A stretch of 17,964 nt of DNA, taken from IMG/VR virus record IMGVR_UViG_2563366946_000008, one strand, 5' to 3'. Each line of letters begins with the position of its first letter. Within the stretch, counting starts at the first letter, position 1. The notes under the pieces were generated by a model, which saw nothing but the letters and a program-made list of their open reading frames with translations, made no database searches and was not told the DNA's origin. Positions 1-17,580 of this stretch are shown in pieces. The stretch comes from a virus (Duplodnaviria; Heunggongvirae; Uroviricota; Caudoviricetes). The position numbers and the translations under genes were made by a program.

Positions 1-1143
1 CTATGCTGTTTTGATATCTACGATAATCCAGTCTTTACCACGATCATCATTGTATCGGTCGGTCATTTTTCTGGATTTATGGCCTAACAACTTTTGCGTA
101 TCCAGACCCTGTTCCCGATATAACCGTTCTGACAGAGATCGCTGCTCATGAAATGTGGGCGCAGTTCCTTGCTCCCATTTTATGCCACATTTTTCCCGGG
201 CCTTTTTAAAAGCCGTTGTCAGAGTATTCGCAGAAACCTGGTCTCCTCTGTTTGCTTGAGAGGTAGTGTGACGGTAATGGACCAGATATTTACTAACAAC
301 AGCATCCCTGCACTGAGATATAACTTCACGAAGGGTAATATTCAGAGCATCGCATTTCAGGTTAAGCGGAATAGCAAGTTTTGAACCGGTTTTTTCCTGA
401 GTAATGTGCAACATGTCGTCCCATATATCAGAGAATTTCAAATTGCAGATATCGCCTAAACGTTGTCCAGTAACAAGAGCAAGTAGCATGCCGCATTTTA
501 AATAGGGCTGCCGTCTGCTTACGCTGTCAAATATTGCCTGCCATTCGGGCAGTGACAATCTTTGGCGGTTTACTCGATTTCGCGGTTGTTTTGTTGCCTG
601 CGCTGGGTTAAATCCTGGCGGAACATGTCCTGCGTGTTGTGCTTCTTTGAAGACGTCGATCAACACCATTCTCACGACTTGCGCCATCCTGTTATGACCT
701 TCAGCCTTTACAGCATCAATTATTTCGGCAATATCAAGTGCGGTAATATCCTTGAGGTGTTGCATTCCACAATGCTCACGGAAAAGACGAATGGGTTTGC
801 CTTTTTGCCGATAGGAGTTGGGTCTTAGTTCATTATGTTGCAGCCTGTCCTCTTGGATAGAAATATATTTATCAAGCCATTCTGTCACCGTAATGTCTGA
901 GCGCCTGCCTTTCATTCTTTCCAGACGCTCATTGACGCTTAATATTTGTCTGGTACGTTGTTCAGCAATAATGGTATTTGCTTCAGTAGCAACTTGTTTT
1001 GCTTCATTCTCATCAGTTCCTAAGCTATGAAAACGACCGGATAGTGGATGTTTGTATTGCCAATATACCTTTCCGGTTCGCTTATCTAATTTGCAATATA
1101 AATTGGGTATAGAGATTTTGTGAGATCGGGGTCTAGCAGCCAT
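1..1143 (-). CDS. int: Phage tyrosine integrase (site-specific recombinase), 380 aa
   Basis: Full-length ORF; C-terminal catalytic signature visible in translation (R in ...TGQRLGD..., H-x-x-R in ...FHEQRSL..., H and Y in ...LLGHKSRKMTDRYNDD...); overlaps the excisionase-like ORF by 11 nt as in lambdoid int-xis pairs. Stop codon is at window position 1-3, so the att site lies outside the window. Confidence 0.9.
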   Translation of the reverse strand: MAARPRSHKISIPNLYCKLDKRTGKVYWQYKHPLSGRFHSLGTDENEAKQVATEANTIIAEQRTRQILSVNERLERMKGRRSDITVTEWLDKYISIQEDRLQHNELRPNSYRQKGKPIRLFREHCGMQHLKDITALDIAEIIDAVKAEGHNRMAQVVRMVLIDVFKEAQHAGHVPPGFNPAQATKQPRNRVNRQRLSLPEWQAIFDSVSRRQPYLKCGMLLALVTGQRLGDICNLKFSDIWDDMLHITQEKTGSKLAIPLNLKCDALNITLREVISQCRDAVVSKYLVHYRHTTSQANRGDQVSANTLTTAFKKAREKCGIKWEQGTAPTFHEQRSLSERLYREQGLDTQKLLGHKSRKMTDRYNDDRGKDWIIVDIKTA

Positions 1144-1369
1144 CAGCGATTATCCTTTGGAGTTTTGGGTTTGCGTTTATTGGGAGTTGCGGTTCTGCAA
1201 GCGTTCCTACAAAACGGGAATTTCGGTCAATCATCCAGTAGCGACCAACTTTTATAGCGGGTGGGGCCATCATTTTCCCTTGCGCGTATTTTTTCAGAAC
1301 TCGCTCACTTGGTGCTAAGTCCCCAAATTCTTCTTTAGCCCAGTCCTGTAAAGTGATTAGTCGAGACAT
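1133..1369 (-). CDS. xis: Excisionase-like small DNA-binding protein, 78 aa
   Basis: Small ORF immediately upstream of and overlapping int on the same strand; strong RBS (GAGGAGG) 4 nt before the ATG; position and size typical of prophage excisionases. Confidence 0.65.
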   Translation of the reverse strand: MSRLITLQDWAKEEFGDLAPSERVLKKYAQGKMMAPPAIKVGRYWMIDRNSRFVGTLAEPQLPINANPKLQRIIADGC

Positions 1370-1508
1370 TTGTCCTCCTCTTAGCTGCTGAGGGAGTTTG
1401 TGACCGATATATCTGACATGATATTAAGCTCATGGCAGGTACATCTCTTGACTGGTCATAGAGATAAATTTAATGCTGAGAAATGCAGTATTGAATTTAT
1501 CAATTTTT

Positions 1509-1748
1509 CTATTTCCTGCGCATGTCACGTAACTTCTTAATGTGTTCTGCCGTTTCGATCTCTTCTGCTATCCGATCTGCATCAGCTTTATTCACAGGTT
1601 CAAAGTCATGATTAAAGCGGAACATGCTGGCGATACATGTTCTGCCTTTTCGGATGTAGTGAACTTTGTTGTGGGTAGAACGCAGGATTTTGCAGGGAGT
1701 GCCGTGGTGGTCGACGTACCAGGTGTTAGGGTCAATCACTCTGAACAT
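1509..1748 (-). CDS. Hypothetical prophage protein (DUF4222-like), 79 aa
   Basis: ORF in the same transcriptional direction as the early-left operon, overlapping the next gene upstream; family assignment from memory of prophage small proteins, not verified. Confidence 0.5.
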   Translation of the reverse strand: MFRVIDPNTWYVDHHGTPCKILRSTHNKVHYIRKGRTCIASMFRFNHDFEPVNKADADRIAEEIETAEHIKKLRDMRRK

Positions 1749-2061
1749 TCTTGACCTTGTGTTGTGCGGATTGATATTCAGTGCTGATATTCACCTTTAT
1801 AGCGAACACCTTTACCGGTTTATCGCCAAAGTGCGGATGTGTGATTGTCTTCACTTCATATCCGTCATACGGAACATCAATTCTGCGACTGGAATCGTCG
1901 CGCTTCGGATATCCCTTTGTGATAATCAGGCGGTCATATTCCCGGAACATAATTCGCTTATTCCAGTAGTCATTACACAAGCGATACTCTTCCGTTTTCT
2001 CTCCGCGAATCATGGCATCGAAGTATTCACTTTTAACAGCAAGTTGCAGGTTAGCCATCAC
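1732..2061 (-). CDS. Hypothetical protein, possible ASCH/PUA-like fold, 109 aa
   Basis: ORF translationally coupled with its neighbours on both sides (overlapping stop/start); size and composition resemble the small ASCH-domain proteins common in enterobacterial prophages; unverified. Confidence 0.5.
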   Translation of the reverse strand: MMANLQLAVKSEYFDAMIRGEKTEEYRLCNDYWNKRIMFREYDRLIITKGYPKRDDSSRRIDVPYDGYEVKTITHPHFGDKPVKVFAIKVNISTEYQSAQHKVKNVQSD

Positions 2062-2279
2062 TTAATCCCCCTTTGTTTGCGGATAAGCTCCAGATCTTGC
2101 TGGCAACTGGCGCAAGTCCGACAACCCTGAACGGCCAGGCGTCTTCGTTCATCTATCGGATCGCCACACTCACAACAATGAGTGGCAGATACAGCCAGGT
2201 AGTTCAGGCGGCGCATTTTTATTGCTGTGTTGCGCTGTAATTCTTCTATTTCTGATGCTGAATCAATGATGTCTGCCAT
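2058..2279 (-). CDS. TraR/DksA-family C4 zinc-finger protein, 73 aa
   Basis: Translation contains a four-cysteine motif (C-x-C ... C-x2-C: ...HCCECGD...GCRTCASCQ...) in a ~70 aa protein, characteristic of phage TraR/DksA-like regulators. Confidence 0.75.
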   Translation of the reverse strand: MADIIDSASEIEELQRNTAIKMRRLNYLAVSATHCCECGDPIDERRRLAVQGCRTCASCQQDLELIRKQRGIK

Positions 2280-2286
2280 CTTTCAT

Positions 2287-2381
2287 TAATCCCTGAACTG
2301 TTGGTTAATACGCTTGAGGGTGAATGCGAACAATAAAAAAGGAGCCTGTAGCTCCCTGATAATTTTGCTTTTCATGTTCAT
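2287..2381 (-). CDS. Possible small ORF, 31 aa (MNMKSKIIRELQAPFLLFAFTLKRINQQFRD)
   Basis: Not in the supplied ORF track (below its length cutoff); has an AAGGAA Shine-Dalgarno 5 nt upstream of its ATG and lies in the same operon direction. Confidence 0.3.
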
Positions 2382-2472
2382 CGTTCCTTAAAGACGCCGT
2401 TTAACATGCCGATTGCCAGGCTTAAATGAGTCGGTGTGAATCCCTTCAGCGTTACCGTTTCGCGGTGCTTCT

Positions 2473-2655
2473 TCAGTACGCTACGGCAAATGTCATTGAC
2501 GTTTTTGGAAACTGCTGTCTGACTTTTTTGATTTCAGAATTAGCCTGACGGGCAATGCTGCGAAGGGCGTTTTCTTGCTGAGGTGTCACTGAACAAGCCC
2601 CATGTCGGCAAGCATAAGCACACAGAATATGAAGCCCGCTGCCAGAAAAATGCAT
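2473..2655 (-). CDS. Lambda orf61-like small protein, 60 aa
   Basis: Position (third small ORF leftward of exo) and size match the lambda orf60a-orf63-orf61 series; the sequence itself was not recognised with certainty. Confidence 0.45.
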   Translation of the reverse strand: MHFSGSGLHILCAYACRHGACSVTPQQENALRSIARQANSEIKKVRQQFPKTSMTFAVAY

Positions 2656-2665
2656 TCAGTGGTTG

Positions 2666-2857
2666 TCATACCTGGTCTCTCTCATCTGCTTCTGCTTTCG
2701 CCACCATCATTTCCAGCTTTTGTGAAAGGGATGTGGCTAACGTATGAAATTCTTCGTCTGTTTCTGCTGGTATTGGCACAAACCTGACTCCAATTTGAGC
2801 AAGGCTATGTGCCAAATCAATACTCGTTCTTAACTCAACAGGAGATGCTTTGTGCAT
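2666..2857 (-). CDS. Lambda orf63-like small protein, 63 aa
   Basis: Second small ORF leftward of exo, 63 aa, matching lambda gene order and size. Confidence 0.55.
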   Translation of the reverse strand: MHKASPVELRTSIDLAHSLAQIGVRFVPIPAETDEEFHTLATSLSQKLEMMVAKAEADERDQV

Positions 2858-3018
2858 ACCGCCCCCCGTTTATTATTTATCTCCTCAGCCAGCCGCTGGG
2901 CTTTCAGCGGATTTCGGATAACAGAAAGACCGTGAAATACCCAGCCTCGCTTTGTAACGGAGTAGACGAAAGTGATCGCGCCTACCCGGATATTATCGTG
3001 AGGATGGGTCATCGCCAT
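2830..3018 (-). CDS. Lambda orf60a-like small protein, 62 aa
   Basis: Immediately downstream of exo on the same strand and overlapping it, as in lambda. Confidence 0.55.
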
Positions 3019-3689
3019 TGCTCTCCAAATACAAAACCAATTTCAGCCAGTGCTTCGTCCATTTTTTCGATGAACTCCGGCACCATCTCGTCAAAACTCG
3101 CCATGTACTTTTCATCCCGCTCAACCACGACATAATGCAGGCCTTCACGCTTCATTCGTGGGTCATAGTTGGCAAAGTACCAGGCATCTTTTCGTGTCAC
3201 CCACATGCTGTACTGCACCTGGGCCATGTAAGCCGACTTTATGGCCTCGAAACCACCGAGCCGGAACTTCATGAAATCCCGGGAGGTAAACGGGCATTTC
3301 AGCTCAAGGCCATTGCCGTCACTGCATAAACCATCGGGAGAGCAGGCGGTGCGCATACTTTCGTCGCGATAGATGATCGGGGATTCAGTAACATTCACGC
3401 CGGAAGTGAATTCAAACAGGGTTCTGGCGTCGTTCTCGTACTGTTTTCCCCACGCCAGCGCCTTAGCATTAACTTCCGGAGCCACACCGGTGCAAACCTC
3501 AGCCAGCAGGGTGTGGAAGTAGGACATTTTCATGTCAGGCCACTTCTTTCCTGAGCGGGGCTTTGCTATCACGTTGTGAACTTCTGAAGCGGTGATGACG
3601 CCGAGCCGTAATTTGTGCCATGCATCATCCCCCTGTTCGACAGCTCTCACGTCGATCCCGGTACGCTGCAGGATAATGTCCGGTGTCAT
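3009..3689 (-). CDS. exo: Lambda exonuclease (Red alpha), 226 aa
   Basis: Translation ([40 protein letters not shown]...GFVFGEQWR) is near-identical to lambda Exo as I recall it; 226 aa; overlaps bet stop. Confidence 0.95.
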
Positions 3690-4471
3690 GCTGCCACCTT
3701 CTGCTCAGTGGCTTTCTGTTTCAGGAATCCAAGAGCTTTCACTGCTTCGGCCTGTGTCAGTTCTGACGATGCGCGAATGTCGCGGCGAAATATCTGGGAA
3801 CAGAGCGGCAATAAGTCGTCATCCCATGTTTTGTCCAGGGCAATCAGCAGAGTGTTAATCTCCTGCATGGTTTCATCGTTAACCGGAGTGATGTCGCGTT
3901 CCGGCTGACGTTCTGCAGTGTATGCGGTATTTTCGACAATGCGCTCGGCTTCATCCTTGTCATAGATACCAGCAAATCCGAAGGCCAGACGGGCACACTG
4001 AATCATGGCTTTATGCCGTAACATCCGTTTGGGATGCGACTGCCACGGCCCCGTGATTTCTCTGCCTTCGCGGGTTTTGAATGGTTCGCGGCGGCATTCA
4101 TCCATCCACTCGGTAACGCAGATCGGATGATTGCGGTCTTTGCGGTAAATCCGGCATGTACATGATTCATTGTCCTGCTCAAAGTCCATACCATCAAACT
4201 GCTGGTTTTCATTGATGATGCGGGACCAGCCATCAACGCCCACCACCGGAACAATGCCGTTCTGCTTATCAGGGAAGGCGTAAATTTCTTTCGTCCACGG
4301 ATTAAGGCCGTACTGGTTGGCGACGATCAACAATGCGATGAACTGCGCATCGCTGGCATCACCTTTAAATGCCGTCTGGCGAAGAGTGGTGATCAGTTCC
4401 TGTGGGTCGACAGAATCCATGCCGACACGTTCAGCCAGCTTCCCTGCCAGCGTTGCGAGTGCTGTACTCAT
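3686..4471 (-). CDS. bet: Lambda Bet (Red beta) single-strand annealing protein, 261 aa
   Basis: Translation ([100 protein letters not shown]...) matches lambda Bet; 261 aa. Confidence 0.95.
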
Positions 4472-4476
4472 CCGTT

Positions 4477-4773
4477 TTATACCTCTGAATCAATATCAGC
4501 CTGATGGTGAGCAATGGTTTCAACTATGTACCGGATGTGTTCTGCCATGCGCTCCTGAAACTCAACATCGTCATCAAACGCACGGGTAATGGCTTTTTTG
4601 CTGGCCCCGTGGCGTTGTAAATGATCGATGCATAGCGATTCAAACAGGTGCTGGGGCAGGCCTTTTTCCATGTCGTCTGCCAGTTCTGCCTCTTTCTCTT
4701 CACGGGCGATCTGCTGGTAGTGACGCGCCCAGCTCTGAGCCTCAAGACGATCCTGAATGTAATAAGCGTTCAT
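4477..4773 (-). CDS. gam: Lambda Gam (RecBCD inhibitor), 98-aa GamS form
   Basis: Translation [98 protein letters not shown] matches lambda GamS. Confidence 0.92.
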
Positions 4774-4848
4774 GGCTGAACTCCTGAAAATGGCTGTGAA
4801 AATATCGCCCGCGAAATGCCAGGCTGATTAGGAAAACAGGAAAGGGGG

Positions 4849-4992
4849 TTAGTGAATGCTTTTGCTTGATCTCAGTTTCAGTATTAATATCCATTTTTTA
4901 TAAGCGTCGACGGCCTCACGAAACATCTTTTCATCGCCAATAAAAGTGGCGATAGTGAATTTAGTCTGGATAGCCATAATTGTTTGATCCAT
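4849..4992 (-). CDS. kil: Kil (host cell-division inhibitor), 47 aa
   Basis: Internal Met of the 89-aa track ORF gives [47 protein letters not shown], matching lambda Kil; overlaps cIII 3' end by 32 nt as in lambda. Confidence 0.8.
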
Positions 4993-5125
4993 TTTTTGGG
5001 ACTCCTGGCTGATTAAGTATGTCGATAAGGCGTTTCCATCCGTCACGTAATTTACGGGTGATTCGTTCAAGTAAAGATTCGGAAGGGCAGCCAGCAACAG
5101 GCCACCCTGCAATGGCATATTGCAT
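4961..5125 (-). CDS. cIII: cIII (FtsH/HflB inhibitor), 54 aa
   Basis: Not in the ORF track (under 60 aa). Manual translation of the minus strand from the ATG at 5125 gives [54 protein letters not shown], matching lambda CIII. Confidence 0.85.
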   Translation of the reverse strand: MQYAIAGWPVAGCPSESLLERITRKLRDGWKRLIDILNQPGVPKNGSNNYGYPD

Positions 5126-5197
5126 GGTGTGCTCCTTATTTATACATAACGAAAAACGCCTCGAGTGAAGCGTAATTGGTATGCGGTAACGCCGCGC

Positions 5198-5566
5198 TCA
5201 GGCGGCCTTGATAGTCATATCATCTGAATCAAATATTCCTGATGTATCGATATCGGTAATTCTTATTCCTTCACTACCATCCATTGGAGGCCATCCTTCC
5301 TGACCATTTCCATCATTCCAGTCGAACTCACACACAACACCATATGCATTTAAGTCGCTTGAAATTGCTATAAGCAGAGCATGTTGCGCCAGCATGATTA
5401 ATACAGCATTTAATACAGAGCCGTGTTTATTGAGTCGGTATTCAGAGTCTGACCAGAAATTATTAATCTGGTGAAGTTTTTCCTCTGTCATTACGTCATG
5501 GTCAATTTCAATTTCTATTGATGCTTTCCAGTCGTAATCAATGATGTATTTTTTGATGTTTGACAT
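5198..5566 (-). CDS. ea10: Lambda Ea10-like early protein, 122 aa
   Basis: 122-aa ORF in the lambda ea10 position between cIII and ral; sequence consistent with my memory of lambda Ea10. Confidence 0.75.
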   Translation of the reverse strand: MSNIKKYIIDYDWKASIEIEIDHDVMTEEKLHQINNFWSDSEYRLNKHGSVLNAVLIMLAQHALLIAISSDLNAYGVVCEFDWNDGNGQEGWPPMDGSEGIRITDIDTSGIFDSDDMTIKAA

Positions 5567-5582
5567 CTATTCATATCCTCAT

Positions 5583-5612
5583 AGATAAAAAATCGCCCTC
5601 ACACTGGAGGGC
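5583..5612 (-). terminator. Candidate intrinsic terminator in the early-left operon (between ral and ea10)
   Basis: GC stem GCCCTC/GAGGGC with a 6-nt loop at 5595-5612; on the minus-strand transcript it is followed by a U-run (plus-strand A-run 5585-5592). Confidence 0.45.
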
Positions 5613-5748
5613 AAAGAAGATTTCCAATAATCAGAACAAGTCGGCTCCTGTTTAGTTACGAGCGACATTGCTCCGTGTATTCACTCGTTGGAATGAATAC
5701 ACAGTGCAGTGTTTATTCTGTTATTTATGCCAAAAATAAAGGCCACTA

Positions 5749-5949
5749 TCAGGCAGCTTTGTTGTTCTGTTTACCAAGTTCTCTGGCAATCATTGCCGTC
5801 GTTCGTATTGCCCATTTATCGACATATTTCCCATCTTCCATTACAGGAAACATTTCTTCAGGCTTAACCATGCATTCCGATTGCAGCTTGCATCCATTGC
5901 ATCGTTTGAATTGTCCACACCATTGATTTGTATCAATAGTCGTAGTCAT
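5749..5949 (-). CDS. ral: Ral (restriction alleviation protein), 66 aa
   Basis: Translation MTTTIDTNQWCGQFKRCNGCKLQSECMVKPEEMFPVMEDGKYVDKWAIRTTAMIARELGKQNNKAA matches lambda Ral. Confidence 0.85.
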   Translation of the reverse strand: MTTTIDTNQWCGQFKRCNGCKLQSECMVKPEEMFPVMEDGKYVDKWAIRTTAMIARELGKQNNKAA

Positions 5950-6019
5950 ACGGATAGTCCTGGTATTGTTCCATCACATCTTGAGGATGCTCTTCGAACT
6001 CTTCAAATTCTTCTTCCAT
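5933..6019 (-). CDS. Lambda orf28-like acidic micro-protein, 28 aa
   Basis: Manual translation MEEEFEEFEEHPQDVMEQYQDYPYDYDY with an AAGGTGA RBS; its stop overlaps the ral start as in lambda. Confidence 0.55.
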   Translation of the reverse strand: MEEEFEEFEEHPQDVMEQYQDYPYDYDY

Positions 6020-6162
6020 ATATCACCTTAAATAGTGGATTGCGGTAGTAAAGATTGTGCCTGTCTTTTAACCACATCAGGCTCGGTGGTTCTCGTGTAC
6101 CCCTACAACGAGAAATCGGATAAACTCTATTCACCCCTACAGAGAGCAAAAGAGAAACGCCG

Positions 6163-6744
6163 ATGAACAACTCATGGTGGCAGGAACTAATGCATTTTTT
6201 CCTGCAAGGAATGACACTTAAACAGTTGATTCATATGCTAATCATCCTGATCATATTGATTATTGTTATGCCGGTAAGCGTAAAAGAATGGATAAACCTG
6301 CATAATCCAGAAATCCTTCCTCATTACTGGATGTATTACATCCTGTTGTTTTGCGTTAGCTATGTGCTTAACGGCGTTGTTAATTCCGCTTATCACGCTG
6401 TGACTGAAAGAATTGAGGTATTCGCTGCTCAGAAGCGCAAATCTAAAGAAGAAAAATATGTGCAAGATTTGTTTGATTCGTTAACTCTTGGAGAAAGAGC
6501 GTATTTGGCATTCGCTGTAGCCGCTAATAACCAGCTACAAACGGAAAAGGGCGCTCATGAATCAATTTCATTGCTCAAAAAAGGACTCCTCGTTCGAAGG
6601 CCTCCTGCTGTTGGATATCCTGATACCGACCGTTTCGTTATCCCTGAAAGCTATAGACATGAGTGCTACATTAGGTTTGCCAGGAAGGCAGACAGCCTTA
6701 TGGATGAACTTATCGCTCAGGATAAGCATGGCAAAAACAAGTAA
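6163..6744 (+). CDS. sieB: SieB superinfection-exclusion protein, 193 aa, membrane protein
   Basis: Opposite strand to the pL operon, in the lambda sieB position between ral and N; hydrophobic N-terminal segments (LIHMLIILIILIIVMPV, YYILLFCVSYVLNGVV); length matches lambda SieB. Confidence 0.8.
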   Translation: MNNSWWQELMHFFLQGMTLKQLIHMLIILIILIIVMPVSVKEWINLHNPEILPHYWMYYILLFCVSYVLNGVVNSAYHAVTERIEVFAAQKRKSKEEKYVQDLFDSLTLGERAYLAFAVAANNQLQTEKGAHESISLLKKGLLVRRPPAVGYPDTDRFVIPESYRHECYIRFARKADSLMDELIAQDKHGKNK

Positions 6745-6760
6745 TTAGCAAATGAATTTA

Positions 6761-7033
6761 TCATCTCGCCGTCAGTTGTTTTGATTTCCGGTAGCCTGCC
6801 GCGTAAAGAGCTACGTTCGGAAGACAAGTTGAACCTTCATATTTTCTGGTCAACGTTGTCAGAGTTATCACTTCTGCTCTCATTGCTGGTTTGAGCTTGC
6901 ATTGCAAGACCACTCGTGAAGGGGTTGGCCTGTGTAGCTTGTCGGAGCTGATCGCCTCCTGACTTTGCAGATTTGCGCGACGAGCTCTACGGCGAGAAGC
7001 TGCGGTGCCTTTAAATTCTGTTTTTCTGGACAT
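6761..7033 (-). CDS. N: N-like transcription antiterminator with N-terminal arginine-rich motif, 90 aa
   Basis: N-terminus MSRKTEFKGTAASRRRARRANLQ carries an arginine-rich motif resembling the boxB-binding ARMs of phage 21/P22 N proteins; strong GGGAGG RBS 5 nt upstream; located where N sits in lambdoid genomes. Not lambda N itself. Confidence 0.6.
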   Translation of the reverse strand: MSRKTEFKGTAASRRRARRANLQSQEAISSDKLHRPTPSRVVLQCKLKPAMRAEVITLTTLTRKYEGSTCLPNVALYAAGYRKSKQLTAR

Positions 7034-7144
7034 GGATTCCTCCCGAATAAACTTTGGCGATGCAATCTCGAAGCTCCTCCTGAGACGGTTGCTTCGGCAT
7101 TGTGAACCGCCCCGGGTTTCCTGGAGAGTGTTTTATCTGTGAAC

Positions 7145-8035
7145 TCAGGCTGCCAGATCATCGTTTCCGATGGAAGCATAATAAGCTTTTTCTGCTTCTG
7201 CCGGAGGAGTATGGCCCAGCCTTTCCAGCAATCGTCGATTGTTATACCAGTCCACCCACGTGAGTGTGGCCAGTTCCACTTCTGCACGGTTTTTCCAGCT
7301 CTTACGGTGTATTACCTCCGCTTTGTAAAGACCATTGATGCTCTCCGCCATCGCGTTGTCATACGAGTCGCCTGTACTTCCTGTTGATGCCAGTAATCCG
7401 GCTTCCTTAAGCCGCTGTGTGTAGGCCAGCGATACATACTGAGAACCTTTATCACTGTGATGGACCGTGCCGGACGGTCGACGGGCCCATAACGCCTGCT
7501 CCAGTGCATCCAGCACGAATGTCGTTTCCATGGACGATGAGACCCGCCACCCCACGATGTATCCGGCAAACACATCAATGATGAACGCCACATAGACGAA
7601 GCCCCGCCATGTGCTGACGTAAGTAAAATCAGCCACCCACAGCTGGTCAGGTCGTTCTGCCACGAACTGACGGTTTACGCGGTCGCCTGCGGCAACGGCT
7701 TTCCGGCTGATGGTCGTACGGACCTTTTTACCCCGGAGAACACCGGCAAGTCCCATAACCGCCATGAGACGTGCCACAGTGCATCTGGCCACTCTGATAC
7801 CTTCCCGTAACAACTGACGCCAGACTTTACGCACACCGTATACCTTGTGATTTTCATCGTATACGCGCTGTATCTCTTTCTTCAGCCAGTCATCGCGCTG
7901 CGCACGGGCACTGCGTTTATCCGGATGATGTCGCTGTTGCTGACAGTGGTAATACGTTGACGGGGCAATATGCAGTTCGCTGCATAGCGGTCCGACCCCG
8001 TACTGCTCACGCAGCTTATCCAGCAGTGGCATCAT
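7145..8035 (-). CDS. IS3-family transposase OrfB (DDE catalytic part), 296 aa
   Basis: 296-aa ORF overlapping OrfA by 4 nt; size and position typical of IS3-family OrfB integrase-like catalytic domain. Confidence 0.9.
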
Positions 8036-8358
8036 TTTTTCCAGAGGCGGTCGAACTCCGCCTTCGCAAAATAAGCGGAAGCCTGGCGAAGGATATCGTT
8101 ACTGCGGCGCAGTTCACGATTTTCACGTTCCAGCTCTTTCAGACGCTGACGTTCAGCGGTGGTGAGCCCTCCATCACCGCCCCCGGTATCCCGCTCATGC
8201 TGGCGAACCCAGACACGCAGAGTCTCCGGCGTACAGCCAATCTTTGGAGCAATGGAACAAATTGTCGCCCATTGTGAGTCATATTCGCTCTGACTTTCCA
8301 GAACCATACGAATCGCCCTCTGACGGACTTCGGGGGAAAAACGAGTATTTTTAGTCAT
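8032..8358 (-). CDS. IS3-family transposase OrfA (HTH DNA-binding part), 108 aa
   Basis: Translation [30 protein letters not shown]... matches IS629/IS1203 OrfA as I recall it; ends in an A6 run (TGG AAA AAA TGA) overlapping the OrfB start, the classic IS3-family -1 frameshift window. Confidence 0.9.
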
Positions 8359-8412
8359 CCTGTTTACCTCTTTCTCAGGAAGTTTAGTCTCCAGGATTCC
8401 CGGGGCGGTTCA

Positions 8413-8679
8413 CAGCGTGACGTTGATCGCGCAGAAACAGATTTACTTATCAATCTGTCAGCTATTACCCAGCGCGGTCTGGCAAAGATGATTGGCTGTC
8501 ATGAATCGAAGATAAGCAGAACGGACTGGAGATTTATTGCTTCGGTCTTGTGTGCTTTCGGAATGGCATCAGACATCAGTCCGATTAGCAGGGCTTTTAA
8601 GTATGCGCTTGATGGACTCACCAATAAAAAACGCCCGGCGGCAACCGAGCGTTCTGAACAAATCCAGATGGAATTCTGA
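8413..8679 (+). pseudogene. cII: cII transcriptional activator, 5'-truncated by the IS element (about 8-10 N-terminal codons and all upstream signals missing)
   Basis: The reading frame is open from the first base after the IS (8413) and ends ...LTNKKRPAATERSEQIQMEF, identical to the lambda CII C-terminus as I recall it; the upstream part (…ISRTDWRFIASVLCAFG…) is CII-like but divergent. No start codon or RBS at the true N-terminus. Confidence 0.75.
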
Positions 8680-8711
8680 GGTCATTACTGGATCAATCCA
8701 CAGGAGTCATT

Positions 8712-9611
8712 ATGACAAATACAGCAAAAATACTCAACTTCTGCAGAGGTAACTTTGCCAAACAGGAGCGTAATGTGGCAGATCTCGATGATGGTTACGC
8801 CAGACTATCAAATATGCTGCTTGAGGCTTATTCAGGCGCAGATCTGACCAAGCGACAGTTTAAAGTGCTGCTTGCCATTCTGCGTAAAACCTATGGATGG
8901 AATAAACCAATGGACAGAATCACCGATTCTCAACTTAGCGAGATTACAAAGTTACCCGTCAAACGGTGCAATGAAGCCAAGTTAGAACTCGTCAGAATGA
9001 ATATTATCAAGCAGCAAGGCGGCATGTTTGGACCAAATAAAAACATCTCAGAATGGTGTATCCCTCAAAACGAGGGAAAATCCCCTAAAACGAGGGATAA
9101 AACATCCCTCAAATTGGGGGATTGCTATCCCTCAAAACAGGGGGACACAAAAGACACTATTACAAAAGAAAAAAGAAAAGATTATTCGTCAGAGAATTCT
9201 GGCGAATCCTCTGACCAGCCAGAAAACGACCTTTCTGTGGTGAAACCGGATGCTGCAATTCAGAGCGGCAGCAAGTGGGGGACAGCAGAAGACCTGACCG
9301 CCGCAGAATGGATGTTTGACATGGTGAAGACCATCGCGCCATCAGCCAGAAAACCGAATTTTGCAGGGTGGGCTAACGATATCCGCCTGATGCGTGAACG
9401 TGACGGACGTAACCATCGCGACATGTGTGTACTGTTCCGCTGGGCATGCCAGGACAACTTCTGGTCCGGTAACGTGCTGAGCCCGGCCAAACTCCGCGAC
9501 AAGTGGACCCAGCTCGAAATCAACCGTAACAAGCAACAGGCAGGTGTGACAGCCTGCAAACCAAAACTCGACCTGACAAACACTGACTGGATTTACGGGG
9601 TGGATTTATGA
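8712..9611 (+). CDS. O: Replication initiator O, 299 aa
   Basis: Translation MTNTAKILNFCRGNFAKQERNVADLDDGYARLSNMLLEAYSGADLTKRQFKVLLAILRKTYGWNKPMDRITDSQLSEITKLP... matches lambda O with a few substitutions; AGGAG RBS; contains the ori iterons. Confidence 0.95.
   Translation: MTNTAKILNFCRGNFAKQERNVADLDDGYARLSNMLLEAYSGADLTKRQFKVLLAILRKTYGWNKPMDRITDSQLSEITKLPVKRCNEAKLELVRMNIIKQQGGMFGPNKNISEWCIPQNEGKSPKTRDKTSLKLGDCYPSKQGDTKDTITKEKRKDYSSENSGESSDQPENDLSVVKPDAAIQSGSKWGTAEDLTAAEWMFDMVKTIAPSARKPNFAGWANDIRLMRERDGRNHRDMCVLFRWACQDNFWSGNVLSPAKLRDKWTQLEINRNKQQAGVTACKPKLDLTNTDWIYGVDL
9060..9190 (+). repeat. Lambda-type replication origin inside O: four ~19-bp iterons plus AT-rich unwinding region
   Basis: Four tandem imperfect palindromic iterons (ATCCCTCAAAACGAGGGA, ATCCCCTAAAACGAGGGA, ATCCCTCAAATTGGGGGA, ATCCCTCAAAACAGGGGGA) at about 9060-9145, followed by an A-rich tract ACAAAAGACACTATTACAAAAGAAAAAAGAAAAGATTATT. 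Confidence 0.85.
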
Positions 9612-10309
9612 AAAACATCGCCGCACAGATGGTTAATTTTGACCGTGAGCAGATGCGTCGGATCGCCAACAACATGCCGGAACAGTACGACGAAAAGCCG
9701 CAGGTACAGCAGGTAGCGCAGATCATCAACGGTGTGTTCAGCCAGTTACTGGCAACTTTCCCGGCGAGTCTGGCTAACCGTGACCAGAACGAACTGAACG
9801 AAATCCGCCGCCAGTGGGTTCTGGCTTTCCGGGAAAACGGGATCACCACAATGGAACAGGTTAACGCAGGAATGCGCGTAGCCCGTCGGCAGAATCGACC
9901 ATTTCTGCCATCACCCGGGCAGTTTGTTGCATGGTGCCGGGAAGAAGCATCCGTTATCGCCGGACTGCCAAACGTCAGCGAGCTGGTTGATATGGTTTAC
10001 GAGTATTGCCGGAAGCGAGGCCTGTATCCGGATGCAGAGTCTTATCCGTGGAAATCGAACGCGCACTACTGGCTGGTTACCAACCTGTACCAGAACATGC
10101 GGGCCAATGCGCTGACTGACGCGGAATTACGACGCAAGGCTGCCGATGAACTGACCTGTATGACAGCGCGAATTAACCGTGGTGAGACGATACCTGAACC
10201 AGTAAAACAACTTCCTGTCATGGGCGGCAGACCTCTAAATCGTGTTCAGGCGCTGGCGAAGATCGCAGAAATTAAAGCTAAGTTAGGACTGAAAGGAGCA
10301 AGTGTATGA
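9608..10309 (+). CDS. P: Replication protein P (DnaB helicase loader), 233 aa
   Basis: Translation MKNIAAQMVNFDREQMRRIANNMPEQYDEKPQVQQVAQIINGVFSQLLATFPASLANRDQNELNEIRRQWVLAFRENGITTMEQVNAGMRVARRQNRPFLPSPGQFVAWCREE... matches lambda P; start overlaps O stop (ATGA). Confidence 0.95.
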   Translation: MKNIAAQMVNFDREQMRRIANNMPEQYDEKPQVQQVAQIINGVFSQLLATFPASLANRDQNELNEIRRQWVLAFRENGITTMEQVNAGMRVARRQNRPFLPSPGQFVAWCREEASVIAGLPNVSELVDMVYEYCRKRGLYPDAESYPWKSNAHYWLVTNLYQNMRANALTDAELRRKAADELTCMTARINRGETIPEPVKQLPVMGGRPLNRVQALAKIAEIKAKLGLKGASV

Positions 10310-10596
10310 CGGGCAAAGAGGCAATTATTCATTACCTGGGGACGCATAATAGCTTCTGTGCGCCGGACGTTGCCGCGCTAACAGGCGCAACAGTAACCAG
10401 CATAAATCAGGCTGCGGCTAAAATGGCACGGGCAGGTCTTCTGGTTATCGAAGGTAAGGTCTGGCGAACGGTGTATTACCGGTTTGCTACCAAGGAAGAA
10501 CGGGAAGGAAAGATGAGCACGAACCTGATTTTTAAGGAGTGTCGCCAGAGTGCCACGATGAAACGGATATTGGCGGTATATGGAGTTAAAAGATGA
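10306..10596 (+). CDS. ren: Ren (Rex exclusion escape protein), 96 aa
   Basis: 96-aa ORF directly after P with overlapping ATGA junction; sequence consistent with lambda Ren. Confidence 0.85.
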   Translation: MTGKEAIIHYLGTHNSFCAPDVAALTGATVTSINQAAAKMARAGLLVIEGKVWRTVYYRFATKEEREGKMSTNLIFKECRQSATMKRILAVYGVKR

Positions 10597-10669
10597 CCAT
10601 CTACATCACTGAGCTAATAACAGGCCTGCAGGTAATCGCAGGCCTTTTTATTTGGGGGAGAGGGAAGTC

Positions 10670-11110
10670 ATGAAAAAACTAACCTTTGAAATTCGATCTC
10701 CGGCACATCAGCAAAACGCTATTCACGCAGTACAGCAAATCCTTCCAGACCCAACCAAACCAATCGTAGTAACCATTCAGGAACGCAACCGCAGCTTAGA
10801 CCAAAACAGGAAGCTATGGGCCTGCTTAGGTGACGTCTCTCGTCAGGTTGAATGGCATGGTCGCTGGCTGGATGCAGAAAGCTGGAAGTGTGTGTTTACC
10901 GCAGCATTAAAGCAGCAGGATGTTGTTCCTAACCTTGCCGGGAATGGCTTTGTGGTAATAGGCCAGTCAACCAGCAGGATGCGTGTAAGCGAATTTGCGG
11001 AGCTATTAGAGCTTATACAGGCATTCGGTACAGAGCGTGGCGTTAAGTGGTCAGACGAAGCGCGACTGGCTCTCGAATGGAAAGCGCGATGGGGAGATCG
11101 GGCTGCATGA
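10670..11110 (+). CDS. ninB: NinB (Orf) recombination mediator, 146 aa
   Basis: Translation from the internal Met (MKKLTFEIRSPAHQQNAIHAVQQILPDPTKPIVVTIQERNRSLDQNRKLWACLGDVSRQVEWHGRWLDAESWKCVFTAALKQQDVVPNLAG...) matches lambda NinB; first gene of the nin region after ren. Confidence 0.85.
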   Translation: MKKLTFEIRSPAHQQNAIHAVQQILPDPTKPIVVTIQERNRSLDQNRKLWACLGDVSRQVEWHGRWLDAESWKCVFTAALKQQDVVPNLAGNGFVVIGQSTSRMRVSEFAELLELIQAFGTERGVKWSDEARLALEWKARWGDRAA

Positions 11111-11634
11111 CTATCAAATCAAATACGCCAGCACACGACAAGGACTGCTGGCAAACGCCGCTTTGGCTTTTTGATGCACTGGATATTGAGTTTGGATTCT
11201 GGCTGGATTCGGCAGCGAGCGACAAAAATGCTCTGTGCGCTCACTGGCTAACTGAGGACGACGACGCGCTCAATTCTGAGTGGGTAAGCCACGGTGCAAT
11301 CTGGAATAACCCACCGTACAGCAATATCAGGCCGTGGGTGGAAAAAGCCGCTGAGCAGTGTATACAACAGCGACAGACGGTAGTGATGCTTGTGCCAGAG
11401 GATATGTCTGTCGGATGGTTCAGCAAGGCTCTGGAGAGTGTTGACGAAGTTCGTATTATCACTGATGGACGGATTAATTTTATCGAACCATCGACAGGGC
11501 TGGAGAAGAAGGGAAACAGCAAAGGCTCCATGCTGCTGATTTGGCGACCGTTCATCAGTCCTCGACGGATGTTTACTACCGTATCCAAAGCGGCATTGAT
11601 GGCGATCGGGCAGGGCGTCAGGAGGGCTGCATGA
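11107..11634 (+). CDS. Phage Dam-like DNA N6-adenine methyltransferase (orphan, no cognate endonuclease nearby), 175 aa
   Basis: Contains the amino-methyltransferase catalytic motif NPPY (…[10 protein letters not shown]…); start overlaps ninB stop (ATGA); occupies the ninC/ninD slot of the nin region. Confidence 0.7.
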
Positions 11635-11807
11635 GACGACAGCGACGAAGCATCACCGACATAATCTGCGAAAACTGCAAATACCTTCCAACGAAACGCT
11701 CCAGAAATAAACGCAAGCTAATCCCAAAAGAATCTGACGTAAAAACCTTCAATTACACAGCCCACCTGTGGGATATCCGGTGGCTAAGATATCGTGCGAG
11801 GAAATGA
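11631..11807 (+). CDS. ninE: NinE-like protein, 58 aa
   Basis: Translation [58 protein letters not shown] resembles lambda/DLP12 NinE; ATGA overlap with the upstream gene. Confidence 0.7.
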
Positions 11808-12151
11808 CAATGGATTATTCACAGTTAAGTGATTTTGAAATTAACAGAATGGTAGGAGACATAATTTTTAAAGGCCTTTGGGCAAGTAAACCGGAAACAT
11901 CAGGGAATAACACCAACAAATGGTATTACGGAAATGCTGATACAACTTTTGAGCCATTAAATCATTTGCCTGACTACTGCAATGATCCGAGCGCTTCATG
12001 GCCGATTATTGAGAAATACAGGATTTCTATCTTAGACCAGTTAACTGAATGGTGTGTGGATGCAAAAGGCGTAAGCCCAATATTTGATACCAGACCTCTC
12101 CGCGCCGCCATGATTGTCTTTCTCCTGATGCAGGAGGCCAATAATGCTTAG
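11804..12151 (+). CDS. Hypothetical nin-region protein, 115 aa
   Basis: ORF translationally coupled to ninE (ATGA overlap, GAGGA RBS); no family recognised from sequence. Confidence 0.5.
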
Positions 12152-12338
12152 CCCATCTCAATCCCTTCAATACCTGAAAGAAAGCATAGAGCGGGCTTCA
12201 ATGTGCACAGAGTGGATTCTATCTAGGTTTAGCGCATACAGAAGATTGCCGGTAAAGGGCATGCCAAGCAAGTCGATGCTGCATATGCAAAAGAATGCGC
12301 GCTGGAAGGTATGGCGAGAACACAGGTTATGTGGCTGA
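12144..12338 (+). CDS. NinF-like small ORF (N-terminus [14 protein letters not shown]…), 64 aa; possibly frameshifted or mosaic
   Basis: Start overlaps the upstream stop; N-terminal residues resemble lambda NinF as I recall it, but the downstream part does not. A different frame (to 12361) carries a C-terminal-looking segment ending …[26 protein letters not shown] whose stop overlaps the rusA GTG start. Confidence 0.3.
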
Positions 12339-12357
12339 AAGAGGGGGTTATTAAGGC

Positions 12358-12720
12358 GTGAATACCTACAGCATCACATTACCCTGGCCTCCGAGCAATA
12401 ATCGCTATTACCGCCATAATCGCGGGCGCACGCACGTCAGCGCAGAGGGGCAGGCATACCGCGATAACGTCGCCCGAATCATTAAAAACGCAATGCTGGA
12501 TATCGGCCTGGCTATGCCTGTGAAAATCCGCATTGAGTGCCACATGCCGGATCGCCGTCGCCGTGACCTGGATAATCTGCAAAAAGCCGCTTTTGACGCA
12601 CTCACTAAAGCAGGTTTCTGGCTGGATGATGCTCAGGTCGTTGATTACCGCGTTGTGAAGATGCCTGTTACCAAAGGTGGGAGGCTGGAACTGACCATCA
12701 CCGAAATGGGGAATGAATGA
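12358..12720 (+). CDS. rusA: RusA Holliday-junction resolvase, 120 aa (GTG start)
   Basis: Translation [108 protein letters not shown]… matches the RusA family (acidic catalytic residues, DDAQ motif). Confidence 0.85.
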
Positions 12721-12857
12721 TGTTTGAGTTTAATATGGCAGAACTTCTTCGCCACCGCTGGGGGCGTCTGCGCTTATATCGTTTCCTCGGTTCTGTTTTG
12801 ACCGATTACCGAATACTGAAGAATTACGCCAAAACCCTGACAGGAACAGGAGTATGA
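12717..12857 (+). CDS. ylcG: YlcG-like small protein, 46 aa
   Basis: Not in the ORF track; manual translation [46 protein letters not shown]; start overlaps rusA stop; same position as ylcG in DLP12-type prophages. Confidence 0.5.
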
Positions 12858-12942
12858 AGTCAGAGATAACAATCAACTAATACTGTTTTGTTGATTTTTG
12901 CTTGTAATTGGCGTTCTGGTCTGATTTTTGTGGAGTAAGTTG

Positions 12943-13326
12943 ATGCGTGATATTCAGATGGTTCTTGAGCGTTGGGGTGCGTGGGCGGCTAATAATCATG
13001 AAGATGTGACCTGGTCGTCCATTGCCGCCGGTTTTAAGGGATTAATTCCTTCAAAAGTAAAATCTCGCCCGCAATGTTGTGACGATGACGCGATGATCAT
13101 TTGCGGGTGCATGGCCCGTCTGAAAAAGAACAACAGCGATTTACACGATTTATTAGTAGATTATTATGTATGTGGTATGACATTCATGTCACTGGCAAGT
13201 AAGCATTGCTGCTCGGATGGTTATATCGGGAAAAGGTTACAGAAGGCTGAGGGCATAATTGAAGGGATGTTAATGGCATTAGATATCCGGTTAGATATGG
13301 ATATCGTTGCTAATAATTCTAATTGA
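12943..13326 (+). CDS. quuD: Q-like late-gene antiterminator (DLP12 QuuD type), 127 aa
   Basis: Translation from the internal Met ([62 protein letters not shown]…) with a cysteine cluster; GGAG RBS 7 nt upstream; last gene before the late region. Confidence 0.8.
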
Positions 13327-13463
13327 TATGCAATTGTTTACTAAAAGTTATTAAAAATGGGGCGTGGAAACGCCCCCAAAATAAAGGGTAATATATAACA
13401 GAAGGTTTATATAGTAAGAAGCAAGGTAGTGCTTCTAAAGGAAGTGGCTTGAGGGCTCCACTT

Positions 13464-13505
13464 ATATGTTGCGGAGGCAAAGCCTCCCGCAACATATCTT
13501 TTTCG
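13464..13505 (+). terminator. Intrinsic terminator (tR'-like) about 140 bp downstream of the Q-like gene; may also end the convergent porin transcript
   Basis: Near-perfect 14-bp inverted repeat ATATGTTGCGGAGG-CAAAG-CCTCCCGCAACATAT followed by CTTTTTCG on the plus strand; sits 10 bp beyond the porin stop codon on the other strand. Confidence 0.6.
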
Positions 13506-13514
13506 TAAGTCAGA

Positions 13515-14597
13515 TTAGAACTGATAAACCAGACCTACAGCGACGATGTCGTCGGTATCAATACCAGCTGTTTTGGTAAACTTACTATCGTCAATTAAGT
13601 TGATTTTGTAATCAACAAAAGTGGACATGTTTTTATTAAAGTAGTAAGTAGCACCGACATCGACATACTTGACTAAGTCTCGGTCACCATGAACACCAAG
13701 GTCTTTACCTTTTGACTGAAGGTAAGCAACAGATGGACGCAGACCGAAGTCAAACTGATATTGTGCTACTGCTTCAAAGTTTTGTGCTTTGTTTGCAATA
13801 TGGTTATTACCAAAAACGGTCATATTCTGAGTTTCAGAATATGTGGTAGCCAGATAGATATTGTTCGCATCATATTTCAGGCCTGCAGCCCATACTTCCG
13901 CATTTTTGCCGGAGGCATTGAATTTGCTCTTACCATAGGCGACCTGACCGTCAGTGCGATCTGATTTAGCATAGGTTGCACCCACGCCGAATCCTTCATA
14001 CTCATAAGTAGTGGAGAAACCGAAACCATCACCATTGGCTTCAGTTACGTCAGTGCGGTCATTTTTACCCTGATACTGAGCAGCAAAGTTCAGGCCATCG
14101 ACCAGACCAAAGAAGTCGTTGTTACGATAAGTTGCAACACCAGTAGTGCGACCAGTCATGAACACATCTGTTTGGGTCCAGGTATCACCACCGAATTCTG
14201 GCAGAACGTCAGTCCACGCACCGATGTCGTATGCTACACCGTAGTTACGGCCGTAATCGATTGAGCCGTAATCACCAAATTTCAGGCCTGCAAATGCAAG
14301 ACGGGTTTTGTCTTTGGAAGAACCTTGAGATTCAGCACGGTTGCCTTTGAATTCATATTCCCACTGACCGAAACCAGTCAGTTGATCGTTGATTTGGGTT
14401 TCACCTTTGAAGCCAAGACGGGCATAAGTAGTATCACCATCATCTGCATCATTAGAGGAGAAGTAGTGCTTGGCATTAACTTTCCCGTATAGATCCAGCT
14501 TGTTACTGTCTTTATTATAAATTTCAGCTGCCTGAGCAGACATCGCCATCAGTACTGATGCAGCTACAGCAGAAATTGCCACTGTTAATTTTTTCAT
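13515..14597 (-). CDS. nmpC: Outer-membrane general porin of the OmpC/NmpC/Lc family (lysogenic-conversion moron), 360 aa with signal peptide
   Basis: Signal peptide [23 protein letters not shown] followed by [17 protein letters not shown]…, porin hallmarks (…PEFGGDT…, …[29 protein letters not shown]…, C-terminal …VAVGLVYQF). Start taken at the internal Met, not the track's upstream ATG. Confidence 0.92.
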
Positions 14598-15023
14598 TGT
14601 ACGCCCTTTTTTTGAACTATTATTAAAAAATGATATCACTGCGCGATAAATATTCATCTAATCAATGTGATTATTTCAAGATGTAAGTTTTAGTTTCTCA
14701 TTTAATTTGTGAAGTAGATCTCTATTTTTATCTGAACCTTTTCTATCTAATCCTATTCATGGCTCTTGTCTGAACAAAAATAAATCTATTAGCTAATTTA
14801 TATTAATGGCACTTATTTATAAGTGCTCTATAATTCTTTAGCTTAATTTAAACAAACTAAAAATAACATCGGAAATTATTAACTGGTTATTTGTTGAAGT
14901 TTTCTTATGCATTTGTGGTGGTGTTTTGAACACTCGGTGGCATTCTCACAAATATCATTTAGTAGTTTACGTACGTAAAAAATTGGTTATGCTGTTAAGA
15001 GTGGTTACTTCGTCACACAGCTT

Positions 15024-15056
15024 AAACCCGCCGTCGAGCGGGTTTTTCCATTTTTT
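15024..15056 (+). terminator. Candidate intrinsic terminator or pause hairpin about 130 bp upstream of the holin gene
   Basis: Stem AAACCCGC / GCGGGTTT with 6-nt loop, followed by TTTTTCCATTTTTT on the plus strand. Confidence 0.5.
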
Positions 15057-15185
15057 GAGTCTCGATATTAGCTGATAACCCAATACCTGAGTTATTCACT
15101 GACTCCGAATCTGTTACGTTTCTGCCTTTATTGCGATACGTAGTATCCCCTTAATTTACACCCGCTTTGTCTGCGAGGTGGGGTT

Positions 15186-15401
15186 ATGAAATCCATGGAT
15201 AAGTTAACAACGGGTGTCGCCTATGGTACCTCAGCAGGTAGTGCCGGGTACTGGTTTTTACAGTTGCTCGATAAAGTCACGCCCTCACAGTGGGCGGCAA
15301 TAGGTGTGCTGGGTAGCCTGGTATTTGGCCTGCTGACGTACCTGACAAACCTTTATTTCAAGATTAAAGAAGATAAGCGCAAGGCTGCGAGAGGTGAATA
15401 A
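15186..15401 (+). CDS. S: Phage-21-type class II pinholin with dual-start motif (MKSM…), 71 aa
   Basis: Translation [71 protein letters not shown]: two transmembrane segments, Met1/Met4 dual start with Lys2, charged C-terminus; GAGGTGG RBS. Confidence 0.9.
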
Positions 15402-15898
15402 TGCCTCCATCATTACGAAAAGCCGTTGCTGCTGCTATTGGTGGCGGAGCAATTGCTATAGCATCAGTGTTAATCACTGGCCCAAGTGGTAACGATGGTC
15501 TGGAAGGTGTCAGCTACATACCATACAAAGATATTGTTGGTGTATGGACTGTATGTCACGGGCATACAGGAAAAGACATCATGCTCGGTAAAACGTATAC
15601 CAAAGCAGAATGCAAAGCCCTCCTGAATAAAGACCTTGCCACGGTCGCCAGACAAATTAACCCGTACATCAAAGTCGATATACCGGAAACAATGCGCGGC
15701 GCTCTTTACTCATTCGTTTACAACGTGGGTGCTGGCAATTTCAGAACATCGACGCTTCTTCGCAAAATAAACCAGGGCGATATCAAAGGCGCATGTGATC
15801 AGCTACGTCGCTGGACATATGCTGGCGGTAAGCAATGGAAAGGTCTCATGACTCGTCGTGAGATTGAGCGTGAAATCTGTTTGTGGGGTCAGCAATGA
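15401..15898 (+). CDS. R: SAR endolysin (T4-lysozyme-like muramidase with N-terminal signal-anchor-release domain), 165 aa
   Basis: N-terminal weakly hydrophobic Gly/Ala-rich segment [20 protein letters not shown] followed by a lysozyme-like catalytic region (E…D…T in …[24 protein letters not shown]…); start overlaps the holin stop. Confidence 0.9.
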
Positions 15899-16356
15899 AC
15901 AGAGTAACCGCGATTATCTCCGCTCTGGTTATCTGCATCATCGTCTGCCTGTCATGGGCTGTTAATCATTACCGTGATAACGCCATTACCTACAAAGCCC
16001 AGCGCGACAAAAATGCCAGAGAACTGACGCTGGCGAACGCGGTAATTACTGACATACAGATGCGTCAGCGTGATGTTGCTGCGCTCGATGCAAAATACAC
16101 GAAGGAGTTAGCTGATGCGAAAGCTGAAAATGATGCTCTGCGTGATGATGTTGCCGCTGGTCGTCGTCGGTTGCACATCAAAGCAGTCTGTCAGTCAGTG
16201 CGTGAAGCCACCACCGCCTCCGGCGTGGATAATGCAGCCTCCCCCCGACTGGCAGACACCGCTGAACGGGATTATTTCACCCTCAGAGAGAGGCTGATCA
16301 CTATGCAAAAACAACTGGAAGGAACCCAGAAGTATATTAATGAGCAGTGCAGATAG
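15895..16356 (+). CDS. Rz: Rz i-spanin (inner-membrane spanin subunit), 153 aa
   Basis: N-terminal transmembrane segment ([18 protein letters not shown]) followed by a charged, coiled-coil-like periplasmic domain; start overlaps the endolysin stop (ATGA). Confidence 0.8.
16115..16297 (+). CDS. Rz1: Rz1 o-spanin lipoprotein, embedded in the +1 frame of Rz, 60 aa
   Basis: Lipoprotein signal peptide with lipobox ([15 protein letters not shown]) followed by a proline-rich mature region ([18 protein letters not shown]); lies entirely inside Rz in another frame. Confidence 0.75.
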
Positions 16357-16387
16357 AGCTGCCCATATCGATGGGCAACTCATGCAA

Positions 16388-16681: not shown

Positions 16682-17161
16682 CTTATTATCCTGCATTGTT
16701 AAAAACGGCAGAATCCTATGTGACAACAATTAAACGATAGTTAAATGGATTGATGAAAATTAAAACTACACAGGTGGGCTCAGACTATTGGAGGAAGTTG
16801 GGGACACTCAGAATCCTGTGGAATGAAATAAACCGGTCTATCCGTCCATTACCCTTTTAGCTGCGCTGTATCGTCGCCGTATTCCCGCATTAACCATGAC
16901 CGTAGCCCGACGGGGAATTCCTTCTGCGTGAGTGTGCGGGAATAATTAAAAACGATGCACACCGGGTTTTTACCGCGTTAATGATTCGCGGGTTTATCCC
17001 GGTGCGATGGTGGAAGAAACAGGAAGCTGTATTACAGAAAGTGCTACTACTGTATCCCGATGCGATGTATGTAATGTGAGTCAGATAATGGCACAGGATG
17101 TGGTGATGTGGCAGTCTGGAACACAGGATATATTGTCAGAATAAGACCCGTAGGAATAAAA

Positions 17162-17488: not shown

Positions 17489-17580
17489 TGCTTCCAGGTA
17501 GAGAGGGGCTGGAAGCAGGAGAAAAATGAAAGAGCCAGCGGTTATATTTTTGTCATGGCTGACGAGGAATGATGGAAGAA

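Follow-up and report, generated by a model that had tools for sequence, protein, structure and literature searches.

IS elements disable lambdoid prophages and help delete parts of them, and the non-inducible remnants keep their cargo, as in Escherichia coli O157 Sakai and in the DLP12, Rac and Qin prophages of E. coli K-12; these defective Sakai prophages and cryptic K-12 remnants are old and carry many lesions. In O157 strains, IS629 drives gene inactivation and deletions (PMC9943667; PMC7430833). Elements of the IS3 family are transposed by the copy-out-paste-in route, in which the donor is regenerated (bioRxiv 10.1101/2023.06.07.543989). Among the ev207/Perceval-type phages, Perceval of strain LF82 yields virions and carries sitABCD (PMC9928086), and Escherichia phage ev207 (NC_049949) is a relative that was isolated as a phage.

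The whole stretch of DNA analysed here (17,964 bp; hereafter the window) is, judged from its sequence, part of an ev207/Perceval-type lambdoid prophage inserted beside icd, and the alignments identify its present state as an IS-associated deletion, with one IS629-type element in place of a 2,871-bp immunity region. The (pro)phages of this type (SCU-123, UPEC129 and others) share gene order and sequence with the window from int to the lysis cassette; in them the 2,871-bp immunity segment is present and the IS absent, whereas the window shows the reverse. Both the left flank (5000-7102; 2,103 bp) and the right flank (8413-10400; 1,988 bp) were 100% identical to ev207, with 34764 as the last ev207 position matched on the left and 37636 as the first one matched on the right. 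The prophage locus next to icd of strain SCU-123 (L005) was used as the intact reference; window 1-7102 corresponded to L005 3001-10102 and window 8410-17964 to L005 12971-22525, and the two prophages were colinear except for the IS and the deletion, with three SNPs in 16.6 kb. An intact icd prophage present in about 190 complete E. coli genomes was 99.98% identical in these flanks. Coverage of the window was 80% or more in 191 complete E. coli genomes, and among the matches listed about 93% of the window, namely all but the IS, was matched at 100.0% identity. The nearest prophage relatives reside in human extraintestinal and commensal strains. Since the window differs from the intact prophage by just three SNPs, the disabling is recent, and the prophage is not a decayed one. 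The idea that this prophage never had an immunity region was rejected, because active phages that possess such a region are identical to it in the flanks.

Table 1. Features at the deletion in the window (plain positions) and in the missing segment (positions marked L005, the intact reference locus)
Feature	Position	Strand	Description
Antiterminator gene N, intact	6761..7033	minus	90 aa; Pfam PF25694 N_peptide, E=1.5e-32; phrog_271, N-like
Residual N leader	7034..7102	minus	69 bp; N ribosome-binding site and leader hairpin; from alignment to ev207 and SCU-123
IS3-family element, IS629/IS1203 type	7103-8412	minus (transposase)	1,310 bp, complete
IS orfB, DDE catalytic part	7145..8035	minus	296 aa; NF033516, E=1e-93, profile positions 93-369
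ALIL pseudoknot, programmed -1 frameshift signal of orfA/orfB	7961..8077	minus	Rfam RF01497, 120.2 bits, full length
IS orfA	8032..8358	minus	108 aa; NF033516 IS3 family transposase, profile positions 1-86
cII remnant	8413..8679	plus	Pfam Phage_CII, positions 7-91 of 91; aligned to intact cII
Promoter-like site and intrinsic terminator	8628..8737	minus	TTGAGT-17-CATAAT, TG upstream
Replication gene O, intact	8712..9611	plus	TIGR01610 phage_O_Nterm, E=5.8e-39; no pR upstream
nutL boxB, GGCTGAAAAGCC	L005 10133-10144	minus	boxA-like GCTCTTTAAACAA just past boxB
Left operator/promoter region	L005 10221-10261		lost segment
rex-position gene pair	L005 10470-11776		DUF1828 (250 aa) and DUF6978-like (185 aa); preceded by a terminator
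cI-type repressor			231 aa; HTH and S24 peptidase domains; lost segment
Right operators	L005 12541-12561		within a 75-bp divergent control region
Cro			71 aa; HTH domain; lost segment
nutR boxB, CGCTGAAAAGCG	L005 12846-12857	plus	boxA CGCTCTTTGTAACAA

The element at the junction is of the size expected for the IS629/IS1203 type (about 1.3 kb). Its terminal inverted repeats start with TGAACCGCCCCGGG, have arms of 27 nt that are 93% complementary, and match the ends of seven other copies of this IS type exactly; its IRR end lies toward N and its IRL end toward cII. The two overlapping transposase genes jointly span the NCBIfam model of the IS3-family transposase. By the ISfinder rule, isoforms share at least 95% nucleotide identity with reference copies. 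Gap-free alignment of the window IS to the O157:H7 copies that RefSeq names "IS3-like element IS1203 family" gave 96.3-96.4% identity, which places it above that value; with copies from other E. coli the identity was 99.5-99.6%. In the comparison with 5,426 genomes, its sole differences from the closest relatives were five substitutions within 10 bp (8311-8320), which change one OrfA amino acid. Four of the five are in the state of O157 IS629 and the neighbouring diagnostic sites are not; the patch resembles a small stretch of conversion between variants of the IS.

On the left side of the IS, the N gene was 100% identical to its ev207 counterpart, and the N-terminus of the encoded protein is arginine-rich. 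The left junction cuts into the N-leader hairpin and removes its outer 4 bp, and nutL lies beyond this breakpoint and is hence missing from the window. The hairpin is a strong structure between nutL and the N ribosome-binding site (window 7059-7102; intact at L005 10059-10106, z=-4.46) and, by analogy, may be the counterpart of the RNase III site of lambda. A conserved 60-aa RefSeq ORF, a putative gene (phrog_3137), runs in a different frame across the start and leader of N (L005 10011-10193; window 7014-7100), and the deletion takes its first 31 codons. Further along the minus strand, the thermoregulator upstream of cIII is intact (window 5080-5138; Rfam Lambda_thermo, 88.5 bits), and cIII is without pL transcription despite it.

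On the right side, cII is without its ribosome-binding site and codons 1 to 10, exactly 30 nt being missing in the alignment to ev207, where the intact gene starts at 37606, and to SCU-123. The IS end and the phage sequence overlap here by three nucleotides, TCA (8410-8412); if these are assigned to the phage, nine cII codons are missing instead of 10, and the spacing of the flanks in intact relatives is 2,868 bp instead of 2,871 bp. The first in-frame start in the remnant is the ATG at 8488, which leaves a C-terminal fragment of 63 aa. Matches to this 63-aa truncated ORF came either from intact immunity regions in which cII has other lesions or from draft contigs, and none contained the IS junction. 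The draft contigs L011, L012, L013 and L015, from unrelated assemblies, all begin 2 nt before this internal ATG; their common start is a repeat boundary of the assemblies and marks the edge of sequence common to co-resident lambdoid prophages, not an IS junction. The cII remnant is followed by O, which was 100% identical to its ev207 counterpart, and then by P.

The missing segment is L005 10103-12973. In the direction from N toward cII, it comprises the outer 4 bp of the N-leader hairpin, nutL, oL/pL, a terminator, the gene pair at the rex position, cI, oR/pR/pRM, cro, nutR and, as its last part, the cII start. The boxB sequences of nutL and nutR form an inverted repeat in which one stem pair has changed in compensatory fashion from G-C to C-G (GGCUGAAAAGCC versus CGCUGAAAAGCG), and the boxB hairpins of the ev207-type family are 14 nt long, compared with 15 nt in lambda. 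The operators are an inverted repeat around AGTAC-N5-GTAC. A simple consensus promoter scan of the intact relative did not flag pL or pR; the putative promoters were placed by the operators, the nut sites, the gene order and a shared motif, TTGTAT-17-TAT(C/T)(G/T)T, that overlaps the operators. The rex-position pair matched a candidate defence pair of PADLOC, PDC-M24B (E=4.7e-10) and PDC-M24A (E=4.8e-4), and thus a candidate anti-phage system that the lysogen expresses was lost with the deletion as well.

No cI, cro, operator or nut site was found in the whole 17,964-bp window by blastn, tblastn and motif search, the sole match to the lost segment being the retained C-terminal half of the small ORF that overlaps the N start. 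A preliminary description of this DNA had proposed that a complete IS629-type element lies 69 bp from the N start (7033 to 7103), that about 8-10 cII codons are absent, and that repressor, operators, early promoters and both nut sites are lost. The intact inverted repeats, orfA, orfB and ALIL pseudoknot, the window search and the intact relatives agree with it throughout, and mapping of the endpoints by alignment to relatives, which it had suggested, placed them 69 bp upstream of N and after cII codon 10 (9 with the TCA ambiguity). An intact cI/cro/operator segment elsewhere in this interval, named there as contrary evidence, was not found in the window.

The triplets beside the window IS are TTG on the left and CAG on the right, and thus there is no 3-bp target-site duplication. 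Perfect 3-bp duplications were found around five other copies in the comparison set of this IS type: two in the HM670 prophage of the same type (CTT and GAC), and one each in 14EC007 (ATA), O157 M1300706002 (GAA) and plasmid p120899 (TAT). In addition, each flank of the window IS matched a separate, distant site of the intact phage. The differing triplets together with flanks from different phage sites indicate an IS-associated deletion and no simple insertion. The preliminary description had read the triplets in the same way, and neither a 3-4 bp duplication nor an intact cII start, which it had named as evidence to the contrary, was present. The missing duplication does not count against the identity of the element as IS629/IS1203-type. 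The same IS variant also occurs in a phage DNA-ejection gene on the chromosome of E. coli 504239 (L019 201-1510), with flanks ATG versus ATC; the imperfect duplication and the annotation of both flanking gene fragments as partial suggest a further IS-associated rearrangement there.

The junctions were searched for in other genomes by megablast with 240-bp probes. Among 5,426 complete E. coli genomes, the left junction had no match and the right junction matched only non-identical O157 cases, and no single-insertion precursor at either site was found in the same genomes. The exact 31-mers of both junctions were absent from the GTDB representatives (one genome per species) and from the JGI metagenome contigs. 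With no matching junction in the searched collections, the event appears to be strain-specific or rare.

We favour, at somewhat better than even probability, homologous recombination between two direct IS copies as the most likely route to this deletion. Of two copies in direct orientation, one would have entered the N leader, with duplication of TTG, and the other cII, with duplication of CAG; both insertions would be silent or harmless in a lysogen, and homologous recombination between the 1.3-kb direct repeats would then drop one copy and all DNA between them. The hypothetical precursor junctions would be the IS end followed by TTGCATCCCACAGC on one side and CAAACTATCACAG followed by the IS end on the other. 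A single IS, with flanks from distant reference sites and no duplication, is the end state expected of such recombination. The two-copy route is favoured because in HM670-type strains this very prophage has acquired two copies of the IS, inversely oriented there, and because insertions in the N leader and cII would be silent in the lysogen. It is also favoured since the donor is regenerated when elements move by copy-out-paste-in, so that adjacent deletions made by the transposase need an extra step. The two-copy precursor with the intervening DNA intact was not found in the 5,426 genomes or the two other collections. No crossover point between distinguishable parent copies was seen in the window IS, just the 10-bp patch of five substitutions, which we read as having no bearing on the crossover; the sequence of the IS gives no proof of two parents.

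The identical end state (one IS, no duplication, one original flank) would also be reached if one IS had inserted at one of the two sites and a transposase-dependent adjacent deletion, or "sloppy" strand transfer, had then extended to the other site with the IS kept. We consider this route unlikely, although a serious candidate: "sloppy" strand transfer has been proposed for IS629 in the literature, IS629 has been tied to genomic deletions in O157 (PMC9943667), and O157:H7 strain OK1 shows an equivalent gam-IS-cII structure without a duplication. The TCA overlap at the right junction could be a joining microhomology, but an overlap of 3 nt arises by chance at a rate of 1/64. Such a deletion is unexpected from copy-out-paste-in transposition without the further step, and the lack of a single-insertion precursor among the complete E. 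coli genomes also argues against it. The preliminary description had named both an IS-mediated deletion and recombination between two copies; an IS-associated deletion is what the junctions show, and either mechanism would lead to it.

An assembly artefact, in which two direct IS copies around an intact immunity region were collapsed into one, is highly improbable. The IS is a multicopy repeat, where assemblies fail, and the junctions are unique among the public genomes searched; however, a contig that passes through a 1.3-kb repeat normally comes from long reads, which would span the 5.5-kb IS-immunity-IS arrangement as well, and the artefact would still require two unprecedented insertions. 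An origin of the deletion in microhomology-mediated end joining driven by the IS-excision enhancer (IEE) has the least probability and is hardly credible, for although deletions beside IS629 made in this way span from a few nucleotides to >40 kb, they accompany excision of the IS (PMC9943667), whereas the window IS is complete and retained, and iee is typical of EHEC and some ETEC, whereas human extraintestinal and commensal strains harbour the prophages closest to this one.

The endpoints, which bracket the repressor and both early promoter regions and spare the other flanking genes, bear on the viability of the lysogen. Loss of the repressor with pL or pR kept would be expected to derepress kil, in situ replication and lysis. 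As loss of the repressor only would be harmful, survivors should lose both promoters along with cI, and the present deletion would be survivable because pL and pR go together with the repressor. From lambda biology, the absence of cI would mean no homoimmunity and no SOS-inducible switch; N, Red, int/xis, O/P and Q would be silent for want of pL, pR and the nut sites; and with cII truncated, pI could not be activated. By analogy with lambda, the prophage is probably "locked-in", in the sense that excision, replication and lysis would all fail without outside help, and it would no longer confer immunity against homoimmune phages. Expression would stay possible only where a gene has a promoter to itself, as for sieB, oop, the porin gene, iss/bor and cargo outside the window, and the remaining genes should be rescuable through recombination with an incoming lambdoid phage.

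Transcription out of the IS had been considered in the preliminary description, with the IS as the only candidate source and with read-out directed into O/P. Both points need to be revised. The transposase genes are on the minus strand, and read-through exits the IS at 7103 into N, on the side of the pL operon. Moreover, a promoter-like site (8737..8709, minus strand) followed by a strong terminator (8655..8628) is kept to the right of the IS; it is the only promoter-like site within 6700-8800, and we take it, with its terminator, to be that of the pO/oop antisense RNA, naming it after lambda from its expected position and size. At the thresholds of the promoter scan, no sigma-70-like outward promoter was detected at either IS end, and the TTCACA hexamers that arise at the two junctions, where each IS end meets its flank, had, by eye, no usable -10 at 16-18 nt. 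No terminator-like site was found between the orfB stop (7145) and N. N made by read-through is without a nut site to act on in cis, and downstream minus-strand terminator-like sites, for example 5614..5593, would limit leftward read-through further.

It is possible to picture the lesion as an adaptive "grounding" of the prophage, by which cargo is fixed in the chromosome through removal of the lysis risk and the leftward transposase promoter of the IS gives low constitutive expression of N and perhaps of the pL-operon genes (ral, cIII, kil, gam, bet and exo), but we regard this as quite improbable. If it were true, the host may gain constitutive restriction alleviation or Red recombination, and the repeated IS629-type sites at the cro-cII interval and 5' cII may reflect selection or a target hotspot.

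For annotation, the prophage in the window is to be scored as non-inducible and non-immune though nearly all of its genes look intact and prophage-prediction tools would probably label it "intact"; relatives within this common prophage family carry sitABCD and iss. The locus is a clean natural example in which one event removes the lambdoid genetic switch, and it illustrates the constraint that a viable repressor deletion must include both early promoters. It reveals no new mechanism.

Two O157:H7 prophages provide the closest comparisons. Strain OK1 (NZ_CP038313, L017) carries an IS629/IS1203 element oriented like that of the window, with the IRL just upstream of cII and the opposite end joined to gam, a distant early-left gene, and there is no 3-bp duplication (TCC and TCA); as in the window, neither the repressor nor cro nor either early promoter region remains. 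It differs in being another prophage, with the left endpoint at gam and the right endpoint about 115 bp upstream of cII; its deletion is larger, extending from kil to cro with loss of N and cIII as well, and its IS copy is about 96% identical to that of the window. Strain M1300706002 (NZ_CP089270, L016) has a simple insertion of this IS type, likewise oriented, within the 5' portion of cII at a site 21 nt downstream from the window's right junction, but with a perfect GAA duplication and with the repressor and cro intact. A precursor of this sort is what the two-copy model requires, although the example belongs to a different prophage. IS629-type elements are seen in the cro-cII interval or the first approximately 17 cII codons of three unrelated prophages (L016 3811-5120, L017 3811-5120 and window 7103-8412), with the transposase reading against pR in all three; the shared position could reflect a target hotspot or the survivorship of insertions that are harmless to lysogens.

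With DLP12 of K-12, the window shares the late-region gene names QuuD, porin, EssD, RrrD and RzpD. Its DLP12-like late region (12943-16729) consists of a QuuD-type Q, an OmpC/NmpC-like porin gene (13515-14657) on the opposite strand, the EssD-RrrD-RzpD lysis genes and, after these, iss/bor (16388-16681, minus strand). In summary, the event is of a well-known kind, here in a different prophage family and with an IS variant; compared with the Sakai and K-12 remnants, the window shows a single clean lesion in a near-identical copy of an active phage.
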